A stretch of 64,000 bases of DNA, from positions 3,264,001 to 3,328,000 of the forward strand of contig CBDDIJ010000003.1 of assembly GCA_965228855.1 (NCBI GenBank), written 5' to 3'. Position numbers and translations under genes: made by a program. Below, piece after piece: positions 34,091-56,848 of the stretch. Position 1 is the first letter of the stretch. Every line of letters starts with the position of its first letter. Under the pieces are notes generated by a model. That model saw nothing but the letters and a program-made list of their open reading frames with translations. It searched no databases and was not told where the DNA came from. This stretch comes from Candidatus Obscuribacterales bacterium (GTDB lineage: Bacteria; Cyanobacteriota; Vampirovibrionia; Obscuribacterales; Obscuribacteraceae).

Positions 34091-34130
34091 CTCAGACGCA
34101 AAGGAGCGCCGACGTTAGAGACAGGAGTGC

Positions 34131-34604: not shown

Positions 34605-34619
34605 TACAGGTGAATTGAC

Positions 34620-38577: not shown

Positions 38578-40845
38578 ATGAGTTACTCCAGATTATGGAT
38601 CACATTTGCCGCCGTTGTCGGATTTTCCTTTTTGGTCCTGGGCTACTTCGGTTACGAAGTATACATGCAGGCTCCACCAGTGCCGGAACAAATACGTTCG
38701 GAAGAAGGCAAAGTTCTCTTTACCGAACACGATATAAAGGAAGGTCAGAGCGTATGGCAGTCAATTGGCGGACAAGAGGTCGGCTCCGTCTGGGGGCATG
38801 GTGCTTACGTCGCGCCCGACTGGTCTGCGGATTTTTTGCACAGACAACTCCTCGTTATTCTTGATTGCTGGGCACAAAAGGAGGCTGGTCTAGAATTTTC
38901 TAAACTGGATCCTGAAAAGCAAGCGGCACTTGGTCAACGCCTCAAGAATCTTGTTCGAAAAAACAGGTTCGATCAGGCGAGCAAGGTGCTGACCATAAGC
39001 ACTGACGAATCCTCGGCAATAGACAAAGTAGGAAAACATTATACGGCGCTGTTCACAGGTGATCCGTCCATGCATGAGTTGCGCGACGCTTATGCATTAC
39101 AACCACAGGCAGTTAAAGACCCTGTCAAAATGCGGCAGATGGTCGCATTTTTTTACTGGACCGCTTGGGCGTGCAGTACAAACAGGCCCGGAAGTGACGT
39201 CACCTACACCAACAACTGGCCCGCCGAATCTTTGATCGGGAACGCGCCAACCGGTGCGATTATAGTCTGGTCTGTTTTGAGCTTTGTGTTTCTGCTGGCC
39301 GGCATTGGAGCACTTTCCTGGTATTTCGCGGCAGAGCGCGGGAGAGAAACAGAACACTCGCACGACATTCCGTCAAGCGATCCACTGTTGGCATTGACCC
39401 CGACCCCTTCAATGCAAGCAACGCAAAAATACTTTTGGGTTGCTGGTGCATTGCTAGTAGTGCAGGTCGGTCTTGGCGCAGTGACGGCGCACTACGGAGT
39501 CGAAGGTTCCGGGTTCTATGGCATTCCACTTTCGAATTGGTTGCCATACGCAGTGACGCGAACGTGGCATACACAACTTGGTATTCTTTGGATCGCTACA
39601 ACTTGGTTAGCAACAGGATTGTTCATTGCGCCGGCTGTTTCTGGCTATGAGCCTAGATTTCAGCGCGCTGGAGTGAATATCCTTTTTGCGTGTTTACTCA
39701 TAATTGTTGTCGGCTCAATGGCCGGTCAGTGGTTGGGAGTTCAGCAAACACTGGGACTGGATGCCAATTTCTGGTTTGGACACCAAGGATATGAGTATGT
39801 CGACTTAGGAAGATTCTGGCAGATATTTTTGTTTGCTGGTCTCTTCATTTGGTTGGGTCTTATGGCAAGAGCTTTGATGCCCGCATTTAAACGTCCTGAA
39901 GAAAACAAAAGTCTGCTGTCATTATTTCTGATTGCCTCGATCGCGATCGCTTTATTCTATGGGGCAGGGTTGATGTACGGTCGTCACACGAATCTTGCCA
40001 TCGCTGAATACTGGCGCTGGTGGGTTGTTCACCTGTGGGTGGAGGGATTCTTCGAGGTATTCGCAACAGTCGTGATTGCCTTTTTGTTTACACGGATGGG
40101 ACTGCTAGCTCATCGAACAGCAACTGCCAGCGTGCTTTTCTCAACGATCATATTTCTTGCCGGCGGCATCATCGGTACGATGCATCACCTTTACTTCTCA
40201 GGAACCCCTACACCAGTGCTTGCGTGGGGAGCGACTTTCAGCGCACTGGAAGTGGTACCGCTGATTCTTATTGGTTTTGAAGCCTACGGCAATCTCACTT
40301 TGAGCAAAGCTAAGTCATGGGTTAAAGCATATCGATGGCCGATTAATTTCTTTGTGGCCGTCGCCTTCTGGAACATGGTAGGTGCAGGATTGTTCGGTTT
40401 CCTCATCAACCCACCCATAGCTCTGTATTACATGCAGGGACTGAACACCACAGCGGTTCACGGTCATACAGCGCTCTTCGGCGTCTACGGAATGCTCGCG
40501 ATCGGTTTGATGCTTTTCTGCCTGAAAGGACTCGCAACACGCAATTTGTGGAAACCCGGAACTGTGCGGTTTGCGTTCTGGTCGATAAATGTCGGTCTGG
40601 GATTAATGGTGCTTCTCAGCCTTTTGCCAGTAGGGCTATTACAAACGTGGGCAAGCGTAGAACACGGACTCTGGTACGCGCGTTCTGCCGAATTCATGCA
40701 AACTCCTACCATGAACCTCCTTCGGTGGCTGAGAGTAATCGGAGACACGATTTTTGCAGTCGGCGTTTTCGCACTTGGCTGGTTTGTTCTTGGTCTGAAG
40801 ACAGGCTGGTCTATAGCAGGACATGTAGATCCGGATTTGCCATAA
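38578..40845 (+). CDS. norB: Quinol-dependent nitric oxide reductase (qNOR)
   Basis: GSVWGHGAYVAPDWSADFLH, RTWHTQL, QGYEYVDLGR, WWVVHLWVEGFFEVF, GTMHHLY, HGHTALFGVYG; 755 aa. Confidence 0.96.
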   Translation: MSYSRLWITFAAVVGFSFLVLGYFGYEVYMQAPPVPEQIRSEEGKVLFTEHDIKEGQSVWQSIGGQEVGSVWGHGAYVAPDWSADFLHRQLLVILDCWAQKEAGLEFSKLDPEKQAALGQRLKNLVRKNRFDQASKVLTISTDESSAIDKVGKHYTALFTGDPSMHELRDAYALQPQAVKDPVKMRQMVAFFYWTAWACSTNRPGSDVTYTNNWPAESLIGNAPTGAIIVWSVLSFVFLLAGIGALSWYFAAERGRETEHSHDIPSSDPLLALTPTPSMQATQKYFWVAGALLVVQVGLGAVTAHYGVEGSGFYGIPLSNWLPYAVTRTWHTQLGILWIATTWLATGLFIAPAVSGYEPRFQRAGVNILFACLLIIVVGSMAGQWLGVQQTLGLDANFWFGHQGYEYVDLGRFWQIFLFAGLFIWLGLMARALMPAFKRPEENKSLLSLFLIASIAIALFYGAGLMYGRHTNLAIAEYWRWWVVHLWVEGFFEVFATVVIAFLFTRMGLLAHRTATASVLFSTIIFLAGGIIGTMHHLYFSGTPTPVLAWGATFSALEVVPLILIGFEAYGNLTLSKAKSWVKAYRWPINFFVAVAFWNMVGAGLFGFLINPPIALYYMQGLNTTAVHGHTALFGVYGMLAIGLMLFCLKGLATRNLWKPGTVRFAFWSINVGLGLMVLLSLLPVGLLQTWASVEHGLWYARSAEFMQTPTMNLLRWLRVIGDTIFAVGVFALGWFVLGLKTGWSIAGHVDPDLP

Positions 40846-41039
40846 CAGATCCTGTTAGTTAGCGTTTCACATCGAATTTCGAGTGAGCAACGTCTGAGAA
40901 AACTCTTGAACCTGCTATCGAATCAAATTGATTTCGATCCATCTTTTCACAGGAGTTCGTTCTGTGAAGAGATTCAACTGGAGAAACGGTAAACATCAGA
41001 GAAACACGTATTTCTTGCAGATATCCACAAATCACAATG

Positions 41040-41085
41040 TCTAAATATTCAAACTCTTGCACATTTGCATAAGAAGTGCTAAATT
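41040..41085 (+). promoter_or_regulatory. Operator site 1 (AATATTCA-N6-TGCACATT, 41044-41065) overlapping the -35 of a putative sigma70 promoter TTGCAC-N17-TAAATT with extended TG
   Basis: 22/25 identical to 46976-47000; -35 at 41057-41062, -10 at 41080-41085. Confidence 0.65.
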
Positions 41086-41151
41086 CGGAATTGTCATCTG
41101 CTCGACCGAACGCGGGCGACTGAAAAAGGTTGCCGCGTTGCTGGAGTAAAC

Positions 41152-42945
41152 GTGCAAAGTAATCACGACGAACACCACAGTGCAACTCCAATGCAGCGCC
41201 TCGGAGCGCTGCTCGTTGCCGACAAACATGACCTCGGTATTCTGGTTGTATACACTTTAATAACCAGTCTAATTTCACTGGCAGTGCCACTTGCGGCCCA
41301 GGCGTTAGTTAACACTATTGCCGCCGGAATCTTTCTGCAACCGCTGATAGTTCTGTCGTTGCTCGTTCTTTCCGGACTCCTCTTCGGTAGCGTGGTAAGA
41401 ATGCTCAAGTTTTGCATTGTGGAGAATCTGCAACAGAGAATTTTCGCGCGAATTACTCTTCGCCTCAGTGAACGCATCCCGGCTATAAAATCATCCGCGT
41501 TGAATGCTGAATACATGCCGGAACTCATAAACCGCTTTTTCGACGTCGTAACGATTCAAAAAAGTTGGGCGAAACTACTTCTCGAGGTACCCACAGCAGT
41601 ACTACAGGTAGTTCTGGGTCTGGTGCTCATGGCCTTTTACAGTCCCCTCCTGCTCGCCTTCGATGTCCTCATCATCCTGTTTATCATCTTCGCCGTCAGC
41701 GTCCTTGGCATAGGCGGTCTGCGGACCAGTATCAAGGAGTCAGTATTAAAGTACAGGGTGGCAGAGTGGCTCGAGGACATGGGAAGATGCCAATCAAGTC
41801 TAAAAACGAATGGAATCACGCACTTTCTCTCGCGGCGTTCCGATAGCCTGGTCATAAACTATCTTAAAGCGCGAAGTGAGCATTTTGCGGTTTTGTTCCG
41901 GCAGGCACTGGGGACCTATTTCTTCCAGGCGTTTGCAAGCGCTGGAATCTTAGCCATCGGTGGATGGCTCGTCATAAACCGTCAGCTTACACTAGGTCAG
42001 CTTGTGGCGGCCGAGCTAATCGTGTTGAACGTCCTATCTGCCCTGGAGAAATTAGTCCGTAATTGCGATACGTTTTACGATCTTCTCACTGGCTTAGACA
42101 AGGTCGGTCATATCAGCGATCTCCCGATTGAACGAAATAACGGGCTCGACCTTCCGCAAACGACAGAAGGGCTTAGCATAGAGTGCTTGAGACTGCACTT
42201 CTCCTATGACCAGACCCGTGAGATTCTGTCGGACATGGATCTCTCGGTGGAAGCCGGTGAGCGAGCTAGTTTGGTCGGAGCCAGCGGCGCAGGTAAGACG
42301 ACTCTAGCGTCCCTGGTATGCGGACTGCAAGACCCCAGTCACGGCACTGTAGAAGTAAACGGTTTCGACGTAAGAGATCTCAGTTTGTTGAGTTTGCGTC
42401 GCCAGGTTGGTATTGTCGGCGATATCAATGAAATTTTCGACGGCACGATCGAAGAGAATGTCGGATTAGGCAGACCGACTGTGTCTCACCGGGATATACG
42501 CTGGGCACTCGATGTCGCACAGTTCACCGAGGATCTCGTGGTGCTTCCGAATGGAATCAACACAATGTTGGTGAGCGGTGGTCGAAATCTGTCCCGCGGT
42601 CAGGTGCAACGACTGTTGATCGCAAGAGCGATTGCGGAGCGACCGAAACTTCTAATTCTCGACGAAGCGTTTACCGGAATAGATGAAAAAACCAAGCTGA
42701 AAATCATCGATGCGCTCTTTTCCAAAGATAACAGGTGGACCGTGTTCGATATCTCCCACGACGCCGAAGTAGTAATGCGGTCAGACAAAGTTTACGTACT
42801 CAGCGATGGAAAAATATGCGAATCAGGGACACCGACAGACCTCGCTTGGCGCGACCAAAGCGAGTTCGGACACCTGTTCCCGGAACTTGCTCGGCAAATT
42901 CGTGCGGTGGAGAGAAGGAAAAAGGAGCGTGTAGAAAGCAGATGA
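41152..42945 (+). CDS. Type I secretion-like ABC transporter (permease plus ATPase, no C39 domain)
   Basis: TM domain with LTLGQLVAAE; Walker A GASGAGKT, signature LSRGQ, Walker B LILDE, ISHD. Confidence 0.9.
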   Translation: MQSNHDEHHSATPMQRLGALLVADKHDLGILVVYTLITSLISLAVPLAAQALVNTIAAGIFLQPLIVLSLLVLSGLLFGSVVRMLKFCIVENLQQRIFARITLRLSERIPAIKSSALNAEYMPELINRFFDVVTIQKSWAKLLLEVPTAVLQVVLGLVLMAFYSPLLLAFDVLIILFIIFAVSVLGIGGLRTSIKESVLKYRVAEWLEDMGRCQSSLKTNGITHFLSRRSDSLVINYLKARSEHFAVLFRQALGTYFFQAFASAGILAIGGWLVINRQLTLGQLVAAELIVLNVLSALEKLVRNCDTFYDLLTGLDKVGHISDLPIERNNGLDLPQTTEGLSIECLRLHFSYDQTREILSDMDLSVEAGERASLVGASGAGKTTLASLVCGLQDPSHGTVEVNGFDVRDLSLLSLRRQVGIVGDINEIFDGTIEENVGLGRPTVSHRDIRWALDVAQFTEDLVVLPNGINTMLVSGGRNLSRGQVQRLLIARAIAERPKLLILDEAFTGIDEKTKLKIIDALFSKDNRWTVFDISHDAEVVMRSDKVYVLSDGKICESGTPTDLAWRDQSEFGHLFPELARQIRAVERRKKERVESR

Positions 42946-44393
42946 ATGGCAACATTGACTGTTCAAACGAAACAGAAGCGCCGGCAACTGTAAAGACGAT
43001 CACCCCGGAGACCGGTCATAGAGAGATTGGGAACTATGAATCGCTAAAGATAGTTGAGTCGAAAAACGGCTACACCATCGTCGCCTTGATATTCTCCGCG
43101 TTGCTCACATCTCTCTGCGCAATGCTCGTTTACGTTCCATGGCAACAGAGCGTTCATGGATCGGGCAAGATAATCATTTTTTCTCCGATGCAACGACCTC
43201 AAAACATCGAATCACAAATACCCGCTCGCCTCAAGCATTGGTACGTCCGAGATGGCCAGACCGTAAAGAAAGGGGAACTGATAGCTGAACTGTCAGACCT
43301 GGATCCAAAGTTCCTAGATCCTCTACAAGGAAGCCGCTTAAACGCGCAAAAGCAGGCACTCATTAAAAGACGCGATGCTGCAGAAAACCGACTCAAGGCC
43401 CTGGAAAAACAAATTGGTAGTTTGAAACGCTCGCAGGATGCGGCAGTCCCATCAGCGCAAGAGCGCTCACAGCAGGCGAAAGATCGTCAGTGGGCAGCGG
43501 AACAGTCAGTTGAGGCAGCCAAGCAGAATATGCTCACTACCAAGCTAAATCTCGCTCGATTGAAAGAGCTACATGAAAAAGGTCTGAAATCAAAACGTGA
43601 TCTAGAACTTGCAGAGCTAGACAACACCAGGGCATTGACGGACCTTGAGCGCGCGCAAGCCGGACTGGAAGTGGCCAAACGTGATCAGACAGTAGCGTTC
43701 CTCGATCAGAACAAAGTGCTCGCCGATACGGATGCCACCATAAGCAGTATCGGCGCCTCGATAGCCGCAGCACAAGAAACAATCGAATCTACAACCAGCG
43801 AAATCTTCAAGCTCGAAATAGAATTGCAGAACGTCGCACAACGAACCGAGCAGCGCAAAGTTTTTGCTCCGTGTGCCGGACGAATAGTTCGCTTACTCAA
43901 GGTCGGAACGGGCGAGACGGTGGACGCAGGTATGGTCCTCGCGGTTCTCGCACCAGACACCCAAGACCTGGCAGCTGAGCTTACTGTTAGCGACAATGAC
44001 GCGCCCTTGATTTCGGTGGGACGACCAGTTCGATTACAATTTGCGGGTTGGCCCGCGCTTCAGTTCGCGGGTTGGCCCTCTGTCGCTGTCGGGACCTTCG
44101 GCGGCAGAGTGACGGTGATCGACGCTTGCGACGATGGGAAAAGCAACTACCGAATAATCGTAAAACCAGACTCCGATGCAATTAAAAAGGGCAGAGATGA
44201 GCCTTGGCCTGATGCGAAATATTTGCGACCAGGCGCAGAGGTGACCGGCTGGATAATGCTGGATAACGTTAGTTTGGGCTTTGAACTCTGGCGCCAATTC
44301 AACGCATTCCCACCAACAGTCAAGCCGGAAGAACTGGGTCTACACAAAGCCGGAGAAACCGATTCTTCGAAAATCAAACGCAAGTCGAAATAG
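42942..44393 (+). CDS. HlyD-family membrane fusion protein
   Basis: ATGA overlap with the ABC stop; TM helix, lipoyl halves ([19 protein letters not shown]), long coiled coil, [22 protein letters not shown]. Confidence 0.9.
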
Positions 44394-44404
44394 GAACTGA
44401 CAAG

Positions 44405-45904
44405 ATGCTGTTTTCGCGGTGGCAAATAGCCATCCTTCTCACCTTGATATGCTCCATCGGTGCAATCACCAGATCTGAGGCATTGGCGCAAAATGACCTG
44501 GCTGATCAGACTCTGCCTCCTCTTCGAGGGAACCGCAAAGCGCCACTGCCTGTGGTGCCAGCGAATGATGCAAGTAATGGATTTTCTTTAGACCATTTTC
44601 TGCAACTGGTTGAAAATAATTATCCAAAACTGCAGAGCGCATTCACGGAGAAACGGATTGCAAGCGCCAAACGTCTGGAAAAAGCGGGGGCATTCGATCC
44701 CGTGTTGAGCAGCGTCAATGAGTATCTGCGCGTGCAGGATACATTTACACCAGGCAAAGCGAAAGATGCTGTACACAATGAATCACGAGTCGATTTGCTT
44801 ACACGCTCGGGCATCAAGGTGTTCACAGGAATGCGGCTCAATCCGAATGACACAAAAACGCCATTTGTTCCAACCGGTACAGCTGGAGAATACTATGCTG
44901 GAGTCACGGTACCGCTTCTAAGAGGTCTGGTGGTCAACGAAAAAGTCGCAGCCGAGGACCAGGCCAAGTTAGGAGAGCCATTAGCGGAACAGCTATTCGG
45001 AGCAACACGCCTGGAAGTTCTTCTCAAGGCCGCAGCGGTTTACTGGGACTGGGTTGGAGCAAAAGCTCGCATTGACATTGCTCGGAATCTTTTGAAAATC
45101 GCCGAGACGAGAGTGGAGCAAATTAGAGAGCGCGTAGCAAACGGGGATCTTCCCGCACTGGACATCTCCGAATCCGAGCAGGAAACGCAACGGCGCAAAG
45201 CTGCCCTGATAAAGAGCGAACGAGAGTTCCAAAAAGCCAGTTTCCAGTTGTCTGTTTTTCTTTGGGACAGTAACGGTGCTCCGTCATTAATACCTGGAAT
45301 TAACGAGGTTCCGACTCTGAGCCCGGAACCTCGCAAGCTAAGCGAAACAGAACGTATGGACGGCAGAAGACTGGCCATTGCTCAACGCCCCGAGTTGAAG
45401 AGAATTGCTCTTGAGCGAGAGCAAGCCAAGGTAGAGCTCCGGCTCGCAGAGAATATGAAGTTGCCGGCGATGGACGCATACGTTTTACAGGGTGCCGACA
45501 CCGGAGAAAATGGAATCGGACCGGTTGTGCGCGCCGGCATGGCCGTCAACTTTCCCCTACGCCAGCGAGCCGCACGAGGACAGGCCGAGGCGGCTCGATT
45601 AAAGATTCAGAAATTGAACTTCGATGAAAGTGTCGAGAAACTACGAATCCAGGCAGAGGTAGACGACGCAGTCTCGGCGATAAACACCTCATGCGATAGA
45701 TGGAATGCAACACTGACAGAGGTGAAGAAGGCCCAGCAAGTGGAGGAGGGGGAGCGTCAACGATTCAGTGCAGGCGATGGGAATTTGTTTCTCGTAAATC
45801 TTCGGGAACGCGCAACAGCGGAAGCAAAGATGCGCCTGGCCGAGGTTCATATTGACTACCTGCAAGCACAGGCAGCTTTCCGCGCCGTAACTTGTAGACT
45901 TTGA
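44405..45904 (+). CDS. TolC-family outer membrane channel
   Basis: Signal peptide, GAFDP, YWDW, RPELK, GDGNLFLVNLRE; follows hlyD by 11 bp. Confidence 0.9.
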   Translation: MLFSRWQIAILLTLICSIGAITRSEALAQNDLADQTLPPLRGNRKAPLPVVPANDASNGFSLDHFLQLVENNYPKLQSAFTEKRIASAKRLEKAGAFDPVLSSVNEYLRVQDTFTPGKAKDAVHNESRVDLLTRSGIKVFTGMRLNPNDTKTPFVPTGTAGEYYAGVTVPLLRGLVVNEKVAAEDQAKLGEPLAEQLFGATRLEVLLKAAAVYWDWVGAKARIDIARNLLKIAETRVEQIRERVANGDLPALDISESEQETQRRKAALIKSEREFQKASFQLSVFLWDSNGAPSLIPGINEVPTLSPEPRKLSETERMDGRRLAIAQRPELKRIALEREQAKVELRLAENMKLPAMDAYVLQGADTGENGIGPVVRAGMAVNFPLRQRAARGQAEAARLKIQKLNFDESVEKLRIQAEVDDAVSAINTSCDRWNATLTEVKKAQQVEEGERQRFSAGDGNLFLVNLRERATAEAKMRLAEVHIDYLQAQAAFRAVTCRL

Positions 45905-45916
45905 GAGAACTTATCC

Positions 45917-45956
45917 TTGACTGATTGCTGTATATGTAGATATCCTGATATTTGCA
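45917..45956 (+). promoter_or_regulatory. Putative promoter TTGACT-N18-TATCCT with weak operator-like site (ATATGTA-N6-CTGATAT-TTGCA) upstream of ArsR-1
   Basis: Degenerate match to sites 1 and 3, including the trailing ATTTGCA. Confidence 0.4.
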
Positions 45957-45978
45957 CAAGTCAAATCAGAGGTGGGGA

Positions 45979-46368
45979 ATGCCTTATCGAGCAGTCGTGA
46001 GCGCAGAATTAGCGAAATTATTCAGCGTGCTGTCCCATCCTGTGCGCATCCGTATAATCGAAGAGCTCAAGAAAGAAGACCTTACAGTTGGCACACTGAA
46101 AGATATGCTTGGCATAACTCACTCCGCAGTTTCTCAACAACTTGCTGTGCTTCGCAGTCATCATCTCGTCAACGAGATGAGACAAGGTCGAAACGTTTTC
46201 TATCATTTGCGCCGGCCGGAGCTTGCTGAATGGATAATGGAAGGCGTCACATTCATATCCCCGGACGCCTCTGAACTGGAACAAATGATGTCTGCGATTC
46301 AAAGCGTAAGAGACGTTTGGGGCGCAGATGAAAAGCCGCAGACGAAACGCAAAAAAAGAAACGCCTGA
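45979..46368 (+). CDS. ArsR/SmtB family transcriptional regulator (ArsR-1, no Cys)
   Basis: FSVLSHPVRIRII, SAVSQQLAVLR, RQGRNVFY; ATG 45979 follows GAGGTGGGG. Confidence 0.92.
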   Translation: MPYRAVVSAELAKLFSVLSHPVRIRIIEELKKEDLTVGTLKDMLGITHSAVSQQLAVLRSHHLVNEMRQGRNVFYHLRRPELAEWIMEGVTFISPDASELEQMMSAIQSVRDVWGADEKPQTKRKKRNA

Positions 46369-46385
46369 TCATTGGTCGCATTTGC

Positions 46386-46781
46386 TCACTGAAGCTCAGG
46401 AGCATCAGAATTCTCTGTATCAATGCTGTCTGACGAAGACCATTTAGCGAATACCTTTTGGGCCGCAACGCTCATTGTGGTTGAATCATGTTCATATCGA
46501 ACGATAAAGGGAATTGCCTTGATTATCCAAACAGGTAAGTCTGGAAATGCGAGCCTGTAGAGGACAAAGCGACCATGACGCCTCTCCTTAATCAAATTTT
46601 GCGCTCGAAGTAAAGCCAGATGTTGAGACACCGATGATTGTCTAGCGCCAAGACGCTCGCGCAAAGAGTTGACGCAAAGCTCGCCCTGGCGCAACTCGAT
46701 AAGAATGCGCAACCGGAGCGGATGGGACAGAACATTGAACATCTCGGCCAATTGCTGGGAAACAAGAACTTGGGATGGCAT
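46386..46781 (-). CDS. ArsR/SmtB family transcriptional regulator (ArsR-2, paralog of ArsR-1)
   Basis: FNVLSHPLRLRIL, ELCVNSL, SSVSQHLALLR, RHGRFVLY. Confidence 0.92.
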   Translation of the reverse strand: MPSQVLVSQQLAEMFNVLSHPLRLRILIELRQGELCVNSLRERLGARQSSVSQHLALLRAQNLIKERRHGRFVLYRLAFPDLPVWIIKAIPFIVRYEHDSTTMSVAAQKVFAKWSSSDSIDTENSDAPELQ

Positions 46782-46804
46782 GTGCTCACTCCACGCAACA
46801 CATC

Positions 46805-46870
46805 TGCAAATGTTTAGACTTTTGAATATTAAGACACATAAACACTAGCACATTTTCCACAAGCTGCCAA
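46805..46870 (-). promoter_or_regulatory. Putative promoter TTGGCA-N17-TAGTGT (extended TG) followed by operator site 3 (AATATTCA-N6-TAAACATT on the minus strand, 46809-46830)
   Basis: Minus strand GTCTTAATATTCAAAAGTCTAAACATTTGCA aligns with site 1 GTCTAAATATTCAAACTCTTGCACATTTGCA. Confidence 0.6.
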
Positions 46871-46931
46871 GATCAGCGCGGTGTCAACGTTTTACTTAAA
46901 ACAGCGACCGTGGCCAAACTTCAAAACTCTG

Positions 46932-47001
46932 TTGACGCAGCTAACGGATAGGGTATACTTTCAATCATGCGCACTTCTAAATATTCAAATCTTTGCACAT
47001 A
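46932..47001 (+). promoter_or_regulatory. Putative sigma70 promoter TTGACG-N16-TATACT followed by operator site 2 (46976-47001)
   Basis: -35 at 46932-46937, -10 at 46954-46959; TCTAAATATTCAAATCTTTGCACAT lies between the predicted TSS and the RBS. Confidence 0.65.
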
Positions 47002-47013
47002 ATGAGGTCAACC

Positions 47014-47976
47014 ATGCAACCACAATTTACCGGCGACGAAATCCTGTACGCCACAAACGGCCATCTCAAGTCAGGCACCATATCCGACACCAAGGGGGCG
47101 CTGACCTGGAAGATCGATGATTTGAAACCGGGCGATTGGTTTTTAGCAATACCTTCACCGTTCCGGGATCCGCACGACTGCCTGAATCTCGCATTCGAGA
47201 AAGGGGCGAGCGGTGTTATCGTGAATCGACGCAACAGGTATTCCTCCGCCGCCGATGGTGGCACCATTATTACCGTCTCCGACACAAGAACAGCACTACT
47301 CGATCTCGTCCGCCACTGGCGCTTCAAGGTTAAACCGAAAGTAGTCGCGGTTTCGGGCACCTTCGGTCGACAAGTGACAATGTTATTGCTCAGTCAGCTC
47401 TTAAGTGAAAAATTTAAAACGCACCTAGCTCCAATGGGAAATCTCGGTTGGTTTGGCTGCATCGAAGAAGTCCTGTCCATGCCGGAAGACACTGATGTTC
47501 TTATCTTCGAAGCTGGTGCAATCGAACGTGGTGACATCACACGGATAGGTGGAGCACTGGTTCCTGATTTTGCGGTTCTGACCCAGATACGGCATCCGCT
47601 GCCATCACAAGAGCGTGATGAATTCGCCGCCGCGCTTTACTGTGAGCTTCTGGAGACACTGGCCGAACAACCTCACGGACGGGTCGCAGCAGCCATCTAT
47701 GACCTCAATATGCCAGTGAGAAATCGAGTTGATGAGCTACTTGAGGGAAGCAACCTGATGGCAGCCAGATATTCGATACCCGGCGAATCATCCCTGGCCG
47801 GTGAGGTCACAGACGAGGCTCTAGCCGAGCTGAGCGCCGCAATTAAGAAAGCAACCGGTCAAACAGTCACGCGAGCGGAACTCTGGTGCGCAATAGAAGC
47901 AGCTAGAGCACTGGGCGTGTCCAACGCCGACCTTGAAAGCCTGCTTAATTTAAAACCAATCGCATCGGTTCAGTAG
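47014..47976 (+). CDS. Degenerate MurF-like protein (Mur ligase N-terminal plus central domain, no C-terminal domain)
   Basis: LKPGDWFLAI..DPHD..AFEKGA, VSDTRTALLDL, VVAVSGTFGR, IFEAG, PDFAVLTQI. The P-loop Lys is absent. ATG 47014 follows GAGG. Confidence 0.75.
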   Translation: MQPQFTGDEILYATNGHLKSGTISDTKGALTWKIDDLKPGDWFLAIPSPFRDPHDCLNLAFEKGASGVIVNRRNRYSSAADGGTIITVSDTRTALLDLVRHWRFKVKPKVVAVSGTFGRQVTMLLLSQLLSEKFKTHLAPMGNLGWFGCIEEVLSMPEDTDVLIFEAGAIERGDITRIGGALVPDFAVLTQIRHPLPSQERDEFAAALYCELLETLAEQPHGRVAAAIYDLNMPVRNRVDELLEGSNLMAARYSIPGESSLAGEVTDEALAELSAAIKKATGQTVTRAELWCAIEAARALGVSNADLESLLNLKPIASVQ

Positions 47977-47997
47977 AGCATAAAACAAGAGAGAGTT

Positions 47998-49539
47998 ATG
48001 ACAAACGAATTTATAATCGCAAATGAGCTACTCTGCTTATTAGCTTGCCCTGTGTCACTGATAACCACCGCTTTCGCCCCCAGACAATCGACGGAAAAGC
48101 TGCTGATATCGGCACAATTCGCGGGCTTCACTTTCGCGCTCGTAGCGGCGATCGCCATACTCGTAACTGGACAGGCACCGCCAGTGATGCCGAATCAATT
48201 GCTGTCCTTGAGAATCGATGCGGCGACATCGTGCCTCCTGGCTGCGACATTTTTCATCTCCACCATAGTGATTGCTTACAGCGACCGCTACCTCAGCGGC
48301 GACACGATGCGCACCAGCTTCATGCGACACATCGCAGTTATCTCGTCTGCGGCCGGTTGGCTCATCGCCTCCAACAATTTGATCGTGGCGTTTTTCTGCT
48401 GGGTTACTTTATCGATCGGACTCTGGCTAACCGTTCGCCTTCAGCCTGACAACAGAAGCGCGGCCAATCTGGTACTGGCACATCATCTAGCAAGCGATAT
48501 ATTCTTACTGGTCGCAATCGCTTTATGCATATCGAACGCTGGAGTCGTTCAGTTCAGCGATTTGCCGGAGAGTCTGCATTTGCTGGATTTATCGTTCCTC
48601 AATTACTCGTGCTCCGCGGGTCTAATTGTCACCTCTCTCCTTATCGTTTCTTTCGGAATTAAATCTGCCCTCTTCCCGTTTCATAGATGGTTGTTTGCCA
48701 CTCTGGAAGCTCCGACACCACTATCCGGCTTGTTGCATGCCGGAATCGTTAACGTGTCAGCCATCATGGCATGGCGATTTATGCCTCTGATGCAAGACTA
48801 CTCGACTCCTCTTCTAATATGGGGCATCTGGTCTGGCATATCGGCCGTAATCGGAACATTGAGCATGGCAGCCCAACCTGATGTGAAAAGGAAGCTCGCA
48901 TACTCAACTGTAGGGCAGATGGGCTTTATGTCTCTCCAGTGCGCGACCGGAGCAATCGCAGCAGCCCTGTTCCATCTGGTCGCGCATGGTCTGTTCAAGT
49001 GCCACCTCTTCCTGCAGTCTGGGGGGGCAGTCTCAGAGGGGTTGTTGAAACGGAAATACAACTACTCGAATCACGCGCCCGCCGTCGGGCATAACATCAT
49101 CATTTTGGCATTTCTTTCTCTTTCGATTATAGCCGTCAGCTGTATCACTATGACTTCTGACAGCTCGACTTGGACCGTCATGTCAACCCTCGTAGCCGGC
49201 GCTGCATTGTTGAGTATCGTTCCTGCGTTAAACAGAATTGATTCCAACATGCTGCTATTTTCGCTGCTCACCTTTGCGGCGCTTGCGATACCATCCGTGA
49301 TGGCGTCTGCGAGACTCGAGCAGTTTGTTCATATAGAGCATCAGATCAATACCTGGCTTATTCCTGTCTTCCTGACGATCTTCGCTTCTGTCGCGGTTCT
49401 TCAAGCTTTAGCGCGAAAGAACAGTCTGGTTGAAGCTGTTTATGTCCACAGCCTGAATGGATTCTATGTCGATGAAGCCTGTTCAACCCTAAGCGGTTGG
49501 AGCGAGACTCACAAAAGGATAGTGAAAAATGGCACCTAG
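47998..49539 (+). CDS. dabB: DAB inorganic carbon pump membrane subunit (NuoL/MrpA-like)
   Basis: KSALFPFHRWL..EAPTPLSGLLHAGIVN, DVKRKLAYSTVGQMGFM, HLVAHGLFK; overlaps the DUF2309 gene. Confidence 0.9.
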   Translation: MTNEFIIANELLCLLACPVSLITTAFAPRQSTEKLLISAQFAGFTFALVAAIAILVTGQAPPVMPNQLLSLRIDAATSCLLAATFFISTIVIAYSDRYLSGDTMRTSFMRHIAVISSAAGWLIASNNLIVAFFCWVTLSIGLWLTVRLQPDNRSAANLVLAHHLASDIFLLVAIALCISNAGVVQFSDLPESLHLLDLSFLNYSCSAGLIVTSLLIVSFGIKSALFPFHRWLFATLEAPTPLSGLLHAGIVNVSAIMAWRFMPLMQDYSTPLLIWGIWSGISAVIGTLSMAAQPDVKRKLAYSTVGQMGFMSLQCATGAIAAALFHLVAHGLFKCHLFLQSGGAVSEGLLKRKYNYSNHAPAVGHNIIILAFLSLSIIAVSCITMTSDSSTWTVMSTLVAGAALLSIVPALNRIDSNMLLFSLLTFAALAIPSVMASARLEQFVHIEHQINTWLIPVFLTIFASVAVLQALARKNSLVEAVYVHSLNGFYVDEACSTLSGWSETHKRIVKNGT

Positions 49540-52012
49540 TAACACTGAAATAACGCTAGAAGGGAGCGGAGAACCAATGACGTCCACCACAGCAACTCAA
49601 CCACTAAATCTCAGCGACGAAATTGCAGAGGCAGCAAACTGCATCAATCATCTCTACCCACTCACAAACTTCGTGGCATGCAACTCGCTGAAAGGATATG
49701 AGAACATTCCATTCGAAGAGGCGATGCGGCGAGCCAGGGAGCTTTTCAATGCTCGTGGCTTTCTTCCACTTTCAGAATATCGAGCCATGTATGAATCCGG
49801 TCGGATAGCACCGGTAGATCTGAATGAAGCTTTCAGACGGCATCATACATGGAAGCGCGAAGCGATTCCGATGGAGCGGAGACGACTCAGCATCTCTGAG
49901 ATGTTCGACGAAATCTGCAAAACCAAAATTGTCGATACCATAAACAGGCAATTGATCAAATGGTGCGGCGCATATCTTGATCAGACGCAAGCGCAATGGA
50001 TCCCGATCGAGAAAAAGGGTCTGTACGAGTTTTGGAAACAGTTGGCACGTCACGACAAATCGCTCTGGTGGCATGGCATAAGAGACTTCGCGCAAACAAT
50101 CGACTCACTCCCGGAGACCTCAGAATCCGCCCTTGAGATGCAGCTCCGAGAGCTTGAAATTCATGGAGAAGATATAGCACCATATTTGAGGAGTCACCTG
50201 ATTCAACTTCCAGGATTTGTGAGTTACATCAAATGGAAGGACGCTGCACATCAAGGCAACGAGCTTCTGAGTGACTATCTCGCCATAAGACTTCATTACG
50301 AGAAGGTTCTAGCTAGGTTTCATGCCGACAAGCATTACAAGTGTCAGGATCTCGGTCTTATCAGACCTCTTCTCGAGTCGGAAACCCCAAAAGACAGTCA
50401 CTTCCCGAAGTCGGACGATGACTACGCTCCAATATGGCAAGAAGCTTATGAACTAAACTATCGAGACAAACTGCTTTCAAGCCTGAATCCAAAATTTTCA
50501 GGTGAAACCAGTGACACTCTCTGCCAGTTGGTGTTCTGCATAGACGTACGATCAGAGCCTATTCGCAGGGAGATTGAACAGCGAGGACCATATTCAACAT
50601 ACGGTTTTGCCGGCTTCTTCGGCATGCCCATGAAATTAAACGAACTAGGCAGCGCCTTCGCACTGGACCTCTGTCCCGTGCTGATTAAGCCGGAAAAGAA
50701 AGCAACGGAAACCGGTAATCTGGTAAGCAGGACGCTAAGTTGGCAGGCACTTAAGGCGTCTGCGCTGCAAATGAAGAAAAAGGTAAAAAGCAATCTAGCC
50801 GGAGCCTTTGGCCTGGTTGAATTGATCGGATTGTACTCTGCAATTCCGCTTGCCGTTAAAACCTTCTTTCCATCTCAAACCCAAAGGCTCGGCCAGGCTG
50901 TTGAGAACTTGGTCACAGGCAGCGATAAAACGACACTCGATCTCTCCGCTTTCTCGCTGCAAGATAAAGTCACCTTAGCAGAAGGAGCGATTGCAGGAAT
51001 TGGTTTAAAGCATTTCTCCAAATTGATCGTACTCTGCGGTCACAAAAGCTCCTCGGTGAACAATCCATTCGCTTCATCTCTCGATTGCGGGGCTTGCGGT
51101 GGCAATGGAGGAACCTACAGCGCTCGTTTTGCAGCAGAAATTCTCAATGATAAGAAAGTGCGAGCAGTTCTGGCCGCAAAAGACATCACGATAAGACCAG
51201 ATACAGTCTTTATAGCGGCTGAACATGACACGACCACGGATAGAATTACACTGTTTCGACCAGACTTCCTTGACGAAGACCAAAAACTGACACTTGCAAG
51301 ACTCAGCGAAGACCTGGATCTCGCCGGAGACGCGATGAGGGAAAAGCGCTCCTTGACACTCCCCAAGAGCAGCATGCAAAAACTCAATGACCCAATCGAG
51401 CGCGCATGCGACTGGGCGCAGGTCGCGCCGGAATGGGGACTAGCCGGTAACGCAGCGTTCATCGCCGCGCCTCGTGGAATTTCCGGCAACTCCGACCTCG
51501 AAGGTAGAGTGTTCCTGCATTCGTACGATTGCGACCTCGATAAGGAGAATAAAGTACTTGAGCTAATCATGACAGCACCGCTGGTAGTGGCACAGTGGAT
51601 TAATACACAGTATTATCTTTCAACCGTCGATAACGACAAGTTCGGCAGCGGGACGAAGGTCGTCCACAACGTCATAGGAGACTTTGGAGTCATGAGTGGA
51701 GCGGCAAGCGATCTGAGGCTGGGTCTGCCGCTTCAGTCGATAAGCTCAGAAGCGGGGTTAAGGCACGAACCAATGCGTCTTCTCTCTGTCATAAGAGCCC
51801 GCCGTTCAGCCATCGAGCAAGTTCTTAAAAAGCATTCTGAAATTGCGCAACTAGTGGAAAATCGCTGGATCAGACTGGTCTCGCTGGAACCGGAAGAGAA
51901 GCGATTTTACGAGTTGGCTCCCGGAGGAGAATGGTATCAAGTCAACTTCAATGCAGCAGAGATAAATAAAGAAAGCATAGCTAACGCTTTAGCTGCTGGT
52001 CTTCGAGCATAA
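49529..52012 (+). CDS. dabA: DAB inorganic carbon pump soluble subunit (DUF2309, beta-carbonic-anhydrase-like)
   Basis: FCIDVRSE (Cys and Asp ligands), GFAGFFG, LCGHKS (His), LDCGACGG (Cys), DWAQVAPEWGLAGNA, GRVFLHSY, HEPMRL. Confidence 0.95.
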   Translation: MAPSNTEITLEGSGEPMTSTTATQPLNLSDEIAEAANCINHLYPLTNFVACNSLKGYENIPFEEAMRRARELFNARGFLPLSEYRAMYESGRIAPVDLNEAFRRHHTWKREAIPMERRRLSISEMFDEICKTKIVDTINRQLIKWCGAYLDQTQAQWIPIEKKGLYEFWKQLARHDKSLWWHGIRDFAQTIDSLPETSESALEMQLRELEIHGEDIAPYLRSHLIQLPGFVSYIKWKDAAHQGNELLSDYLAIRLHYEKVLARFHADKHYKCQDLGLIRPLLESETPKDSHFPKSDDDYAPIWQEAYELNYRDKLLSSLNPKFSGETSDTLCQLVFCIDVRSEPIRREIEQRGPYSTYGFAGFFGMPMKLNELGSAFALDLCPVLIKPEKKATETGNLVSRTLSWQALKASALQMKKKVKSNLAGAFGLVELIGLYSAIPLAVKTFFPSQTQRLGQAVENLVTGSDKTTLDLSAFSLQDKVTLAEGAIAGIGLKHFSKLIVLCGHKSSSVNNPFASSLDCGACGGNGGTYSARFAAEILNDKKVRAVLAAKDITIRPDTVFIAAEHDTTTDRITLFRPDFLDEDQKLTLARLSEDLDLAGDAMREKRSLTLPKSSMQKLNDPIERACDWAQVAPEWGLAGNAAFIAAPRGISGNSDLEGRVFLHSYDCDLDKENKVLELIMTAPLVVAQWINTQYYLSTVDNDKFGSGTKVVHNVIGDFGVMSGAASDLRLGLPLQSISSEAGLRHEPMRLLSVIRARRSAIEQVLKKHSEIAQLVENRWIRLVSLEPEEKRFYELAPGGEWYQVNFNAAEINKESIANALAAGLRA

Positions 52013-52019
52013 CGGAAGA

Positions 52020-52910
52020 ATGCGACATCCATACTTCGACAAAACCATCTCGCTGACCACAAAGCATAAGAAGGCTTCGGCGCTCGCCTTGCCACTCCGG
52101 GCGGGCGTCGGCTTGCGAGTTAGCGAGGTCGAAGTTGACACAGATATCTTCGGCACCTTTTCGGGAGAAGTTGAGCGAAGAGGAAGCGCCATCGAAACGG
52201 CCATAAAAAAGGCTCGCCTTGGAATGATGAAAAGTTCCTCGCCACTTGGTCTAGCTACCGAAGGTAGTTTCGGTGCCCATCCACTCATTCCTTTCGTAGC
52301 CGGCTGTGAGGAAGCAATCGTTTTAATAGATGATGTTCATGGTTTTCACGTATCAGAGAGTTTGATTTCAACGAAAACAAACTTCAGGTACTGTGAAATC
52401 GCGTCGATGGACGAGATCGAAGAATTTCTGGACCAAGCTAAATTTCCGTCCCACGGTTTGATCGTTAAACCAAATCAAACTGACCGGAAGTTGTTTCAAA
52501 AAATTGGTCGGCTGTTCGGAAAAACTACGCCCTCCACCATCAAAGGAATACAAGAGCGCGAATCGCTGCAACGGGCAATTGAAACCTGCAGAGCCATCTC
52601 CGGCGATCACCTGGCGCGAGTGGAAACCGACATGCGCGCACATATGAATCCGACTCGCATGCGAGTTCTACGCGAGCTGGGAGTCAAATTGGCTCGGAGG
52701 CTCCGCTCGAGCTGCACTGAATGCAACTGTCCCGGCTTTGGTCGAACGTCGGTAAGTGGGTTCTTGAACTGTTCTGAATGTGGATTCGCCTCTCAGTCGC
52801 CATCTCACGAAATCCACAGTTGCCCCAGGTGCCGATACTCCAAAACGCTGCCCCGGAGCGACGGAGTGCAAAGTGTTGATCCTATGTATTGCGCTCGCTG
52901 CAACCCCTGA
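52020..52910 (+). CDS. DUF6671-like protein with C-terminal Cys-rich zinc-ribbon region
   Basis: TKHKK, DTDIFGTFSGEVER, ATEGSFGAHP, ETDMRAHMNPTRM, four CxxC motifs ending CARCNP. Confidence 0.8.
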   Translation: MRHPYFDKTISLTTKHKKASALALPLRAGVGLRVSEVEVDTDIFGTFSGEVERRGSAIETAIKKARLGMMKSSSPLGLATEGSFGAHPLIPFVAGCEEAIVLIDDVHGFHVSESLISTKTNFRYCEIASMDEIEEFLDQAKFPSHGLIVKPNQTDRKLFQKIGRLFGKTTPSTIKGIQERESLQRAIETCRAISGDHLARVETDMRAHMNPTRMRVLRELGVKLARRLRSSCTECNCPGFGRTSVSGFLNCSECGFASQSPSHEIHSCPRCRYSKTLPRSDGVQSVDPMYCARCNP

Positions 52911-52957
52911 GTTTTAAGTTCAAATAAATGAAGATGATGGAAAGGAATTGATAAGAA

Positions 52958-53761
52958 ATGGACAGAAATTTACAAGACATGGAAAACGAAAGCATCTTCA
53001 TCATTCGGGAGGCCTATGCAAAGGTAAAGGACCTCGCGCTTCTATGGTCAATGGGAAAGGATTCCACGGTACTGCTTCATCTGGTGAAAAAAGCATTCAT
53101 GGGAAATTGCCCTATGCCACTGGTGCATGTTGATGAGAGCTATGAGCCTGAGGCGATGATTGCCTGGAGAGACGAATACGTTAAACGACACGATTTGAAG
53201 CTAATAGTCGGTCAAAATAAACAGGCGTTATCCGAAGGAATGGGCCCGCATCTTGGCCGTCTAACTTGTTGCAATGCACTAAAGACAGTGGCACTGCAAC
53301 AGACCGTTAAAGAACATAACATTCAAGGTCTGCTGGTCGGAATTAGACGCGACGAGGAAGGATCCCGCGGAAAAGAACGAGTGGTATCGCCCAGATCTTC
53401 TGATGGCGCATGGAAGTACAAAGATCAGCCAGCCGAGATCTGGAACCACTTCAATCTGCATACGCCAAAGGATATCCATCTCAGAATTCATCCGATACTC
53501 CACTGGGATGAACTCTCAATTTGGGAATACATTAAGAGTGAATCCATCGAGATAATTCCACTGTATTTCGCCCGCGATGGCATGCGCTATCGCAGCCTGG
53601 GTTGCGCCCCTTGCACCGGCGCGTTTCCTTCCACAGCGGCTACGGTAGAAGAGATTATTGAAGAACTCAAACAGAGTTCCGAATCAGAGAGAGCCGGCCG
53701 AGCGCACGACAAAGAAGAGGCATATGCTCTACAAAAACTGAGAAGCCAGGGATTCATGTAA
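52958..53761 (+). CDS. cysD: Sulfate adenylyltransferase subunit 2
   Basis: ESIFIIREA, LWSMGKDS (PP-loop), GIRRDEEGSRGKER, RIHPILHW, RYRSLGCAPCT, ERAGRA.D. Confidence 0.92.
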   Translation: MDRNLQDMENESIFIIREAYAKVKDLALLWSMGKDSTVLLHLVKKAFMGNCPMPLVHVDESYEPEAMIAWRDEYVKRHDLKLIVGQNKQALSEGMGPHLGRLTCCNALKTVALQQTVKEHNIQGLLVGIRRDEEGSRGKERVVSPRSSDGAWKYKDQPAEIWNHFNLHTPKDIHLRIHPILHWDELSIWEYIKSESIEIIPLYFARDGMRYRSLGCAPCTGAFPSTAATVEEIIEELKQSSESERAGRAHDKEEAYALQKLRSQGFM

Positions 53762-55474: not shown

Positions 55475-56848
55475 ATGAAACCTGATGAACTGAAAACAGA
55501 AAAATATCCCATTCTCGCGCCAGCTAGTTTGGCAAGTTCTGACGGCATTGGAGCAATCTTCATAAGCGCATTGTTCTTTTCCACGCTTGCTTGGCTCGTT
55601 CTATCAACGAAACTCGGTCTGGAGCCGAAGCTGCAGTGGATGTTGGTCGGAGGTTTGCTGATGTATAACCTCGCGCGTAGCGATACAACCTTTCCGAGGT
55701 CTGATCTTGAACTGAAAGCAAAGGGGCTGGATATCAAAGATCGCCGTCTCAACGCGATCATGCCGTGGGACTGGGTAACGAAGGTAGAGATTCGTCAACG
55801 AACGCTGAGTATCTTCCCGAATTACGTCTACTTCCAATTCAAGGATAAATCAGATGTGCTGATTCTTTGGGAGGACGTTTGCGACAAAATGGATTCTACG
55901 ACTCTAATCTCATGCGTGCGAACCTGGGCTCCCCATGCGGAAATCAAGGGAGATGCGAAGCTGACAAAATCGGAATCGATTGCAACATACACTGAACTCT
56001 GGCTTTCAGGAATGAACTCAACTAAATCGACCAAACGATTGAGACAGGACCATGCCATTCCAGAAGAAACGATACTGAATAACAGCTACAAGATTGAACG
56101 CCTTTTGAGCGGCGGAGGACAAGGTACAGCTTACCTTGCGTCGGTCCTACCGCATGCAGAGGTTCCGAATATGCCACCACAAGTGGTGATAAAGGAGCTT
56201 ATCCTACCGTCGACTGACCGAGGATTGAAGAAGGCAACAGACGGTCTAATTAAAGAAGTCGCCATTTTGAGACGTATTTCCAGTGACAAGATTGTCTCGC
56301 TCTACGATTTCTTTATTGAAGACATGCGCGGCTACCTCGTCATCGAGTATATCGATGGAGAGACGCTGCGGCAGCTCGTCGCACGATGCGGTCCGCTTCA
56401 AGAATCTAGGGTCGCAGAAATTGGAGTGGCACTGTGCGATGCGCTTTCGTATCTTCATGGACTCACTCCGTCAATCATTCATGGAGATGTCACGCCCGAC
56501 AATATCATGCTCGACAAAAGTGGTGCAGTAAAGTTGATGGACTTTGATGCATCACAAGAACTCACGAGAAACAAAACTAACACGGTAGTCGGCAAACACG
56601 CATATATGTCGCCTGAGCAATTCAAAGGAATTTTGAATGAATCGAGCGACACATATGCGCTCGCATGCACAATGCATTTTTTGTTGACGGGAAACGATCC
56701 GGAGCCTATTAGTGAAAGTCATCCCGCTGACTTTGTGAATACCGTGGGAGTTGAGATGAATAGGATTGTATCGACTGCTACCAAGTTCAACTTTGAAGAA
56801 CGACTTCTAGATCTTAAACAAATGAGGTCTCAACTTGAGCGAATCTGA
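55475..56848 (+). CDS. Membrane-anchored Ser/Thr protein kinase (non-RD, HGD)
   Basis: Two TM helices; GGGQGTAY, VVIKE, IIHGDVTPDNIML, DFD, YMSPEQ. Confidence 0.9.
   Translation: MKPDELKTEKYPILAPASLASSDGIGAIFISALFFSTLAWLVLSTKLGLEPKLQWMLVGGLLMYNLARSDTTFPRSDLELKAKGLDIKDRRLNAIMPWDWVTKVEIRQRTLSIFPNYVYFQFKDKSDVLILWEDVCDKMDSTTLISCVRTWAPHAEIKGDAKLTKSESIATYTELWLSGMNSTKSTKRLRQDHAIPEETILNNSYKIERLLSGGGQGTAYLASVLPHAEVPNMPPQVVIKELILPSTDRGLKKATDGLIKEVAILRRISSDKIVSLYDFFIEDMRGYLVIEYIDGETLRQLVARCGPLQESRVAEIGVALCDALSYLHGLTPSIIHGDVTPDNIMLDKSGAVKLMDFDASQELTRNKTNTVVGKHAYMSPEQFKGILNESSDTYALACTMHFLLTGNDPEPISESHPADFVNTVGVEMNRIVSTATKFNFEERLLDLKQMRSQLERI

Follow-up and report, generated by a model that had tools for sequence, protein, structure and literature searches.

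A ten-gene cluster in a 64-kb stretch of DNA from a Candidatus Obscuribacterales bacterium (the window, part of contig C3 of a genome of 8.2 Mb that is 95% complete) probably serves as a heterotroph's CO2-shortage regulon: a Cys-poor ArsR protein would repress four promoters via one palindrome until cytoplasmic bicarbonate is low. The cluster encodes an ATP-binding cassette (ABC)-HlyD-TolC exporter, two ArsR regulators and, in one operon, a MurF-like protein, the two subunits of a DAB pump, a DUF6671 protein and a spare CysD. Obscuribacterales are non-photosynthetic relatives of cyanobacteria, and Rubisco was not found in our genome search. Our analysis confirmed the gene order and strands given in a preliminary description of this DNA, together with the gaps of 21, -11, 7 and 47 bp separating the murF-like, dabB, dabA, DUF6671 and cysD genes. 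That description proposed a single ArsR-type regulon; conserved gene order and a common operator do join the exporter, the arsR pair and the dab operon, and to that extent the proposal stands.

The palindrome is 28 bp long and imperfect, and its four copies lie one upstream of each transcription unit, as had been reported. Operator 1 (41037..41064, + strand) precedes the ABC gene and has the top genome-wide score, operator 2 (45932..45959, +) precedes arsR1 and overlaps a sigma-70-like -10 match, operator 3 (46810..46837, - strand) precedes arsR2, and operator 4 (46973..47000, +) precedes the dab operon and lies 14 bp beyond a promoter-like match (46932-46959); the total of the promoter scan was at chance level (12 vs 11.9 expected). 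A leave-one-out scan of the 8.2-Mb genome showed that only 4 positions reached each of the ABC and murF-like sites, compared with 22 for the site of arsR2 and 130 for that of arsR1; taken alone, the latter two sites are therefore weak. When a matrix from 70 sites of other genomes was used, the four sites of the window ranked 1-4 (34.7, 32.8, 27.0 and 24.3 bits) and the best site outside the cluster in the same genome reached 17.0 bits; this test is partly circular because the training sites had been picked with the window's matrix. The matrix scan revealed no further regulon member above 17 bits in this genome, and the regulon appears to be local there.

The non-circular evidence is positional: the site lies upstream of the orthologues that lead a unit and does not precede internal genes. 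Counts across genomes were made with the closest genome left out and, unless stated, at a threshold of 14 bits. The operator was found upstream of 10 of the 11 ABC orthologues with at least 65% identity (0/18 for more distant ABC genes), 10 of 12 pseudo-murF orthologues, all 5 arsR2 orthologues and 13 of 18 arsR1-type genes (16 of 18 at 12 bits or more). Among internal genes it preceded only 1 of 82, and among other genes 11 of 489, several of the latter 11 sharing an intergenic region with a cluster gene. Since kin are not independent, these counts describe conservation and are not a statistical test. A degenerate operator pattern matched 63 times in 61 genomes, and its reversed control 15 times. 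Strong operators were also seen before an MFS/spermidine-synthase fusion in G002 and G022 and before a divergent 199-aa family-less protein in G022 (L208:3871-6162, L035:15019-18138); judging from these sites, both proteins are possible further regulon members.

DabB, the proton-conducting membrane subunit (47998..49539, +), matched PF00361, with NF006029 and NF006373 below cut-off, and DabA (49529..52012, +) matched PF10070 at 783 bits and PDB entry 9rd0 with an E value of 7e-105. The motifs of DabA align with those of 9rd0, and the Cys-Asp-His-Cys zinc site of the beta-carbonic anhydrase (beta-CA) type is kept (C337, D339, H505 and C520). DabAB is predicted to be a DAB/MpsAB-type pump that turns CO2 into bicarbonate in an energy-coupled uptake. 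Divergent beta-CA-like proteins with weak PF00484 matches are encoded in or beside other DAB units (L048:11516-12181, L049:11045-11695 and L033:4050-4757), and in L049 the beta-CA-like gene is followed downstream by Sua5 and PurK/PurE genes. The G052 genome has three DAB loci, one of which encodes a DabB-DabA fusion of 1369 aa (L046:5694-9803).

Among 36 other genomes of the host family, DabA was found in 16, the exporter in 16 and both in 11, and in 7 of these 11 the two lie within 10 kb. The full order from the ABC gene to DUF6671 recurs in three genomes (G007, G027 and G022) and on one metagenome contig. In the other clusters arsR2, pseudo-murF or DUF6671 is missing, the order is rearranged or most of dab is lost; in two genomes (G002 and G005) DabA and the exporter lie on different contigs, with operators kept at both parts. 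In G001 (L047:13025-15221), pseudo-murF, dabB and most of dabA are lost and the operator, DUF6671 and the spare cysD are kept. The linkage that the preliminary description expected to find elsewhere was thus observed for the cluster and its operators in the host family, but in other genomes the exporter is mostly unlinked to DAB.

ArsR1 (45979..46368, +; start corrected to 45979) has 129 aa and no Cys, and its paralogue ArsR2 (46386..46781, -; 41% identity) has one. Both scored above the cut-off of 55 bits of the ArsR/SmtB winged-helix profile NF033788 (79.8 and 87.4 bits). The candidate binding sites at their own and their target promoters are inverted imperfect repeats, as in the ArsR/SmtB family. 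A paralogous regulator pair had been proposed, and both genes are present here with operators of their own; a pair is nevertheless not required, since ArsR2 is often absent and many relatives carry arsR1 alone. ArsR1, the conserved member of the pair, is likely to be the main repressor. The SmtB, CzrA, ArsR and BigR/SqrR subfamilies have a conserved Cys pair or metal-site ligands. An alignment of 45 members of the ArsR clade showed no conserved Cys column, most members having no Cys or one, and, with ArsR1 itself Cys-free, the metal and persulfide chemistries of the ArsR family are therefore disfavoured.

The targets of this clade were examined in other genomes. Four of 18 further operator-pattern matches that we fetched led to ArsR or carbon-uptake genes, namely an arsR-SulP pair and a DabB-like fragment (both in G010), an arsR alone (G018) and an arsR-beta-CA-bestrophin-SulP run (G023). 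In a less biased set of 18 loci taken by ArsR1 similarity alone, a beta-CA gene adjoins arsR in 5, with SulP as well in 3 of those; these loci come from two other families of the phylum and from Armatimonadota. In G109, which belongs to another class, a divergent ArsR pair is followed by beta-CA, IDH, DUF6671 and the exporter in one run. Genes for DAB, beta-CA, SulP and bestrophin thus follow an ArsR of this Cys-poor clade in separate lineages. Inorganic carbon is the theme that these targets share, which favours an inorganic-carbon signal over sulfur or metals, and it is from these neighbours that we infer the ligand. Of the signals named in the preliminary description (CO2/HCO3-, pH or sulfur status) the first is thus favoured, and the cysD gene would point to CO2 shortage and not to sulfur status. 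The genome also has a third ArsR of the clade (45% identity to ArsR1) on contig C2 (L307:618-4753), encoded after a SulP gene and before genes for a Usp and for a protein that looks carbonic anhydrase-like by eye and has no Pfam match; the site upstream of this locus reaches only 8.6 bits.

Several observations weigh against this reading. The remaining fetched pattern matches comprise the MFS/spermidine-synthase fusion once and nothing related in 13 cases, and no inorganic-carbon gene adjoins 13 of the 18 loci taken by ArsR1 similarity, these 13 all belonging to a single family (9 genomes); in the same family, ten DAB loci lack the operator at 14 bits. Two genomes, G308 and G310, have the exporter, arsR1 and operators, and neither DabA nor DUF6671 was found in them. 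The window's own genome has two beta-CA matches, so DAB may be a back-up.

The last gene of the operon (52958..53761, +) encodes a spare CysD (NF003587, 320.7 against a cut-off of 195) with no adjacent cysN and with Glu63 in place of Lys. When aligned to PDB entry 1zun, which has Lys at this column, it keeps the PP-loop, the RRDEE motif and the C-terminal motifs, and it is 65% identical to a second, housekeeping CysD encoded with cysNC on contig C2. A search of 40 genomes showed that members of the genus carry both copies; the spares follow DUF6671 without cysN, which was beside none of the spare copies checked, and the remaining copies go with cysN. After two partial matches lacking the region of residue 63 had been dropped, one column split the copies fully, all 10 spares having Glu and all 20 CysN-linked copies Lys. 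As predicted in advance, the CysN-less copy of a Methylocystis DAB cluster has Glu and three CysN-linked controls have Lys, for totals of Glu in 11/11 CysN-less copies tied to DAB or DUF6671 and Lys in 23/23 CysN-linked copies. According to the tree, the spare state must have arisen twice, in Obscuribacterales and in Alphaproteobacteria. Where a carbamylated lysine is replaced, Glu usually takes its place, and Glu63 looks like a carbamate mimic.

This interpretation has to be set against a broader sample and a serious competitor. Among 150 representatives, of which 110 were scored irrespective of gene context, the column holds Lys in 74, Asn in 22, Glu in 10 and another residue in 4. Glu is confounded with the loss of adjacent cysN; a Pseudomonas plasmid cysD near DUF6671 has both cysN and Lys. 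As an alternative that concerns CysD only, Glu63 might mark a partnership with CysN that has been lost, or an altered substrate, the product then being a stand-alone adenylyltransferase or an inactive protein; we place this possibility only a little below even. The perfect coincidence of Glu with the absence of adjacent cysN, the alteration of the neighbouring Thr60 to Glu or Ser in 10/10 copies and the frequency of Asn at this position elsewhere speak for it, whereas the retained motifs and the 65% identity to the housekeeping copy do not, and neither does the arrival of two independent lineages at the same acidic residue, both in carbon-uptake operons. That Glu63 lets sulfate activation continue at low CO2, with the spare CysD working with the housekeeping CysNC, is a distinctly tentative proposal.

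DUF6671 (52020..52910, +) gave a predicted structure with a pLDDT of 92.5. Its residues 7-238 aligned to ITPase/Ham1/YjjX structures (1vp2 and 1u5w) with Z 12.7 and a root mean square deviation (rmsd) of 3.4-3.6 over 139 residues (Foldseek E 5e-4 and 8e-4), and an inserted ATP-grasp B domain, residues 121-206, aligned to 4dim with Z 9.2 and an rmsd of 1.6 over 64 residues; the tail has eight invariant cysteines. Searches by sequence against PDB and by Atlas features gave nothing usable. The structural model predicts an ITPase/Ham1/YjjX superfamily fold, and the protein may hydrolyse nucleotides; it differs from the known hydrolases in its identity of 10-13%, its inserted domain and its cysteine tail. 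A role as obligatory CysD partner was rejected, as G311 has a spare CysD and no DUF6671 was found there, in a search that matched nowhere and is therefore weak.

Of 12 DUF6671 matches on proteobacterial and actinobacterial plasmids, 7 are immediate neighbours of DAB and 3 of SbtA, and ilvD, pyrC, Sua5, cysD or carboxylases are often nearby. The fullest set of CO2-related enzymes occupies about 25 kb of the Methylocystis rosea plasmid pGW6_1 (L087, L302) and comprises DabA, bioD, ccrA, a CysN-less cysD, bioA, two fhcA, an acyl-CoA carboxylase subunit, DUF6671, pyrC and ilvD. IlvD, Mur ligases and FhcA have a carbamylated lysine, and Sua5, BioD and CcrA use CO2 or bicarbonate. A carbamylated lysine is also described for dihydroorotase in the consulted portions of two papers (PMC8659124, PMC8497156). 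The spare PyrC (2/2) and IlvD (4/4) retain the lysine, which counts against a general sparing of CO2, and on this ground we rejected the view that every spare enzyme is a form independent of CO2.

The first gene of the dab operon (47014..47976, +; start corrected to 47014) had been described as murF-like. As a MurF enzyme it does not hold up: the 320-aa product is a pseudoenzyme that has lost catalytic residues and the C-terminal domain, only the first two MurF domains being matched, with no PF02875. The Lys of the P-loop GxxGK[TS] is Arg in 52/53 homologues, the last one being unparsed; the column of the AKxE-motif Lys, which we take to be the carbamylated lysine of full-length MurF, holds Tyr in 48/53 homologues and Lys in none, and Lys in three full-length MurF proteins aligned. 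The homologues have a median length of 324 aa (longest 368, n=53), and all those that are named come from Melainabacteria or from metagenome-assembled genomes labelled cyanobacteria. At 14 other aligned loci, which include more than one DAB type, pseudo-murF lies immediately 5' of dabB or one carbonic anhydrase-like gene earlier. A single-sequence fold prediction was of low confidence (pLDDT 43.5). The genome has a second, more degenerate pseudo-MurF (C2:1073632-1074522, 296 aa, 27% identity to the window copy); the sole full-length MurF-like gene found in it (C3:1929342-1931036, 564 aa) encodes an unusual hydrophobic N-terminus, and a MurF of the G038/G309 type was not found there.

The exporter consists of an ABC protein with membrane domain and ATPase (41152..42945, +; PF00664 and PF00005, below all NCBIfam cut-offs listed), a HlyD-like periplasmic adaptor of 483 aa (42942..44393, +; start probably 42942) and a TolC-like outer-membrane protein (44405..45904, +; PF02321). 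The GWP..F.GWP motif noted in the preliminary description is present in the adaptor and in its family, and the nearest named relatives of the adaptor are from Obscuribacterales. The label of type I secretion given there is borne out by the three-part set of ABC protein, adaptor and outer-membrane channel in one operon, as in HlyB/HlyD/TolC, PrtDEF and the peptidase-containing exporters, but by little else. The ABC protein has no C39 domain, and in its ATPase the Walker A/B and H-loop are intact, but Asp replaces the Gln of the Q-loop and the signature reads LSRGQ; the ATPase motifs are more eroded in distant relatives (106 homologues). The type I profiles (HlyB, LssB, PrtD, HlyD and TolC models) were not reached (TIGR01846 216/726, TIGR01843 81/209 and TIGR01844 46/225). 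A repeat-pattern search for RTX repeats matched 0/162 loci and nothing in the 95%-complete genome, and PF00353 gave no match; a non-RTX cargo is possible. With no RTX cargo and altered ATPase motifs, the identity as type I secretion is unproven and follows from the three-part layout alone.

The exporter subfamily is widespread, and the proposed coupling to DAB proved to be mostly a trait of a single clade. Among 51 genomes with a distant exporter, 22 have DabA, adjacent to the exporter in only 2; DUF6671 is present in 8 (beside it in 3) and this ArsR type in 18 (beside it in 7). The adjacency counts of 2 and 3 exceed the estimated chance (about 0.1 or less, for a 20-kb interval in a several-Mb genome), yet they are a minority. 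Likewise unfavourable is the finding of a carbon-uptake marker in just 4 of 80 metagenome exporter loci, against an own-genome background with a mean of 2.0 and a maximum of 6; a marker or CO2-related enzyme occurs in 9/80 (background mean 3.6, maximum 10). A general link between exporter and carbon uptake across bacteria was rejected as not shown, the 4/80 lying within background. Over 147 exporter loci, the marker was found in 9/16 close and 11/131 distant ones, and no uptake marker was found near the exporter at 7 Planctomycetota and 10 Armatimonadota loci. By these neighbourhoods the exporter is tied firmly to ArsR and loosely to carbon uptake. PEP (phosphoenolpyruvate) carboxylase genes lie in or near the exporter operon in three unrelated lineages (L066:10378-16190, L143:1855-8526 and L083:2455-11239), and IDH genes lie near the exporter or DUF6671 in L033, L079, L110, L178, L182, L187, L248 and L257. 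On one metagenome contig (L178:6997-19200), a TetR-ABC-HlyD-TolC set faces DUF6671 and IDH genes, which come as a pair with a TetR paralogue of their own (42% identity), making TetR a possible second regulator family linking exporter, DUF6671 and IDH.

The firm tie to ArsR raises the alternative that ArsR is the exporter's own regulator, answering to a stress or cargo signal unrelated to CO2, and that in some lineages DAB and other carbon-uptake genes came under its operator as part of a general stress response. The 7 of 18 genomes in which this ArsR type stands beside a distant exporter fit such a history, as do five loci (L082, L112, L115, L072 and L076) with ArsR, operator and exporter and no carbon-uptake markers. 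We nevertheless consider it improbable: ArsR recurs with beta-CA, SulP or DAB and no exporter in separate families and in another phylum, and genomes of family f2 have arsR1-murF-dab with 0/3 exporter matches. A further alternative, that the signal is cytoplasmic pH or anion balance and that DAB, carbonic anhydrase, SulP, bestrophin and the exporter serve pH homeostasis, seems quite improbable. These genes also deal with bicarbonate in its role as a buffer, an NhaA-type antiporter flanks the cluster of G009, and a role in pH for carbonic anhydrases and DABs is raised in the part of the DAB study that we consulted (10.1101/476713); the spare Sua5, bioD, ccrA, pyrC and ilvD genes beside DUF6671 and DAB, whose products use bicarbonate or CO2, would however be left unexplained. 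A sulfur- or metal-responsive regulon of the BigR/SqrR or SmtB/CzrA kind, with cysD as its informative member, is very improbable: cysD is in the operon and SmtB and BigR are among the closest solved ArsR structures, but the BigR, CmtR and PagR models stay below cut-off (BigR 54 against 155), ArsR1 and its clade are poor in Cys, most clusters beyond the genus have no cysD, and the unit has no metal efflux gene.

A CO2-shortage regulon may operate as follows. On balance, we consider it probable from the arrangement of sites and genes that ArsR1 represses all four promoters when CO2 or bicarbonate is sufficient and that shortage releases DAB for uptake, along with helpers that would sustain CO2-dependent metabolism. 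ArsR1 dimers would bind the four sites, with ArsR2 as a dispensable helper; CO2/HCO3-, or a metabolite tracking it, would hold ArsR on the DNA, and shortage would free it. DabAB would then convert CO2 to bicarbonate at the expense of an ion gradient, supplying carboxylases and CO2-dependent enzymes. The spare CysD would pair with the housekeeping CysNC in trans, Glu63 replacing a CO2-modified (carbamylated) lysine; DUF6671 would be a nucleotide-using helper of the low-CO2 response and pseudo-MurF a non-catalytic binding protein. The exporter would be co-repressed and move a cargo other than an RTX protein; a real role for it in the low-CO2 response is the weakest step, and we lean slightly towards doubting it. 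A more specific, CO2-sparing version, in which the Cys-free ArsR senses CO2 or bicarbonate directly, the Lys-type CysD needs CO2 as a lysine carbamate and a Glu paralogue that evolved at least two times is switched on at low CO2 with DAB, pseudo-MurF, DUF6671 and the exporter, is rather unlikely to hold as a whole.

Zur zinc-sparing regulons turn on uptake systems and spare paralogues of scarce-cofactor enzymes upon starvation. The proposed regulon would resemble them by analogy in combining uptake with spare paralogues, except that the scarce cofactor would be CO2 and that CysD alone shows a sparing change, PyrC and IlvD keeping their lysine. Low-CO2 regulons of cyanobacteria are governed by the LysR regulators NdhR/CcmR and CmpR. 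As in those regulons, a repressor is proposed here to govern inorganic-carbon uptake genes by carbon supply, but it has an ArsR fold, the host lacks a detected Rubisco, and an exporter and spare biosynthetic enzymes are members. The pump itself is like DAB2 (DabA2/DabB2) of Halothiobacillus neapolitanus (9rd0), MpsAB of Staphylococcus aureus and ndhF-mpsB-canC of Bacillus subtilis in its adjacent dabB-dabA, its PF00361 and PF10070 domains and its zinc residues; unlike these systems, it has pseudo-murF, DUF6671 and a CysN-less cysD as neighbours and ArsR operators ahead of it. The proteobacterial plasmid DABs in our data have a divergent LysR gene.

DAB function has been described (10.1101/476713), and DAB/MpsAB in heterotrophs is in print (10.1101/476713, 10.64898/2026.03.13.711513, PMC8552792, PMC11394868 and PMC13622662). 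In the available portions of these five works, the regulators named for DAB/MpsAB are LysR, Crp/Fnr or ResD and no ArsR; those found in the H. neapolitanus screen are LysR and Crp/Fnr regulators (10.1101/476713), and the corresponding portion of the B. subtilis ndhF-mpsB-canC paper does not mention ArsR. Our literature search, which had most subscription journals and supplements outside its scope, found no paper on ArsR with bicarbonate transport at low CO2, none on DUF6671 and none linking CysD to carbamylation. The cluster would be a low-CO2 regulon with a new type of regulator, ArsR, and its new element would be the CysN-less CysD with Glu63.

Directly upstream of the cluster are a bestrophin-like gene (37652-38449) and a gene for NorB, a quinol-dependent nitric oxide reductase (qNor; 38578-40845). 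Both were rejected as regulon members: they have no operator, and qNor is adjacent in the closest relative only. Judged from translations, TadE/TadG-like pilus genes lie farther upstream (33635-35666) and two Ser/Thr kinase-like genes lie downstream (55475-58340).

To grow in air, many heterotrophs depend on a CO2 supplement or on a carbon pump, and it is poorly known how they sense CO2 shortage and which of their enzymes fail first. The locus supplies a candidate CO2-shortage sensor with an exact predicted operator, and it yields a prediction at a single residue, namely that sulfate activation by the Lys-type CysD is CO2-dependent and that the Glu paralogue escapes this dependence. If this is true, sulfur assimilation would become a CO2-dependent process, and the neighbourhoods of DAB genes would offer a route to hidden CO2-dependent enzymes.

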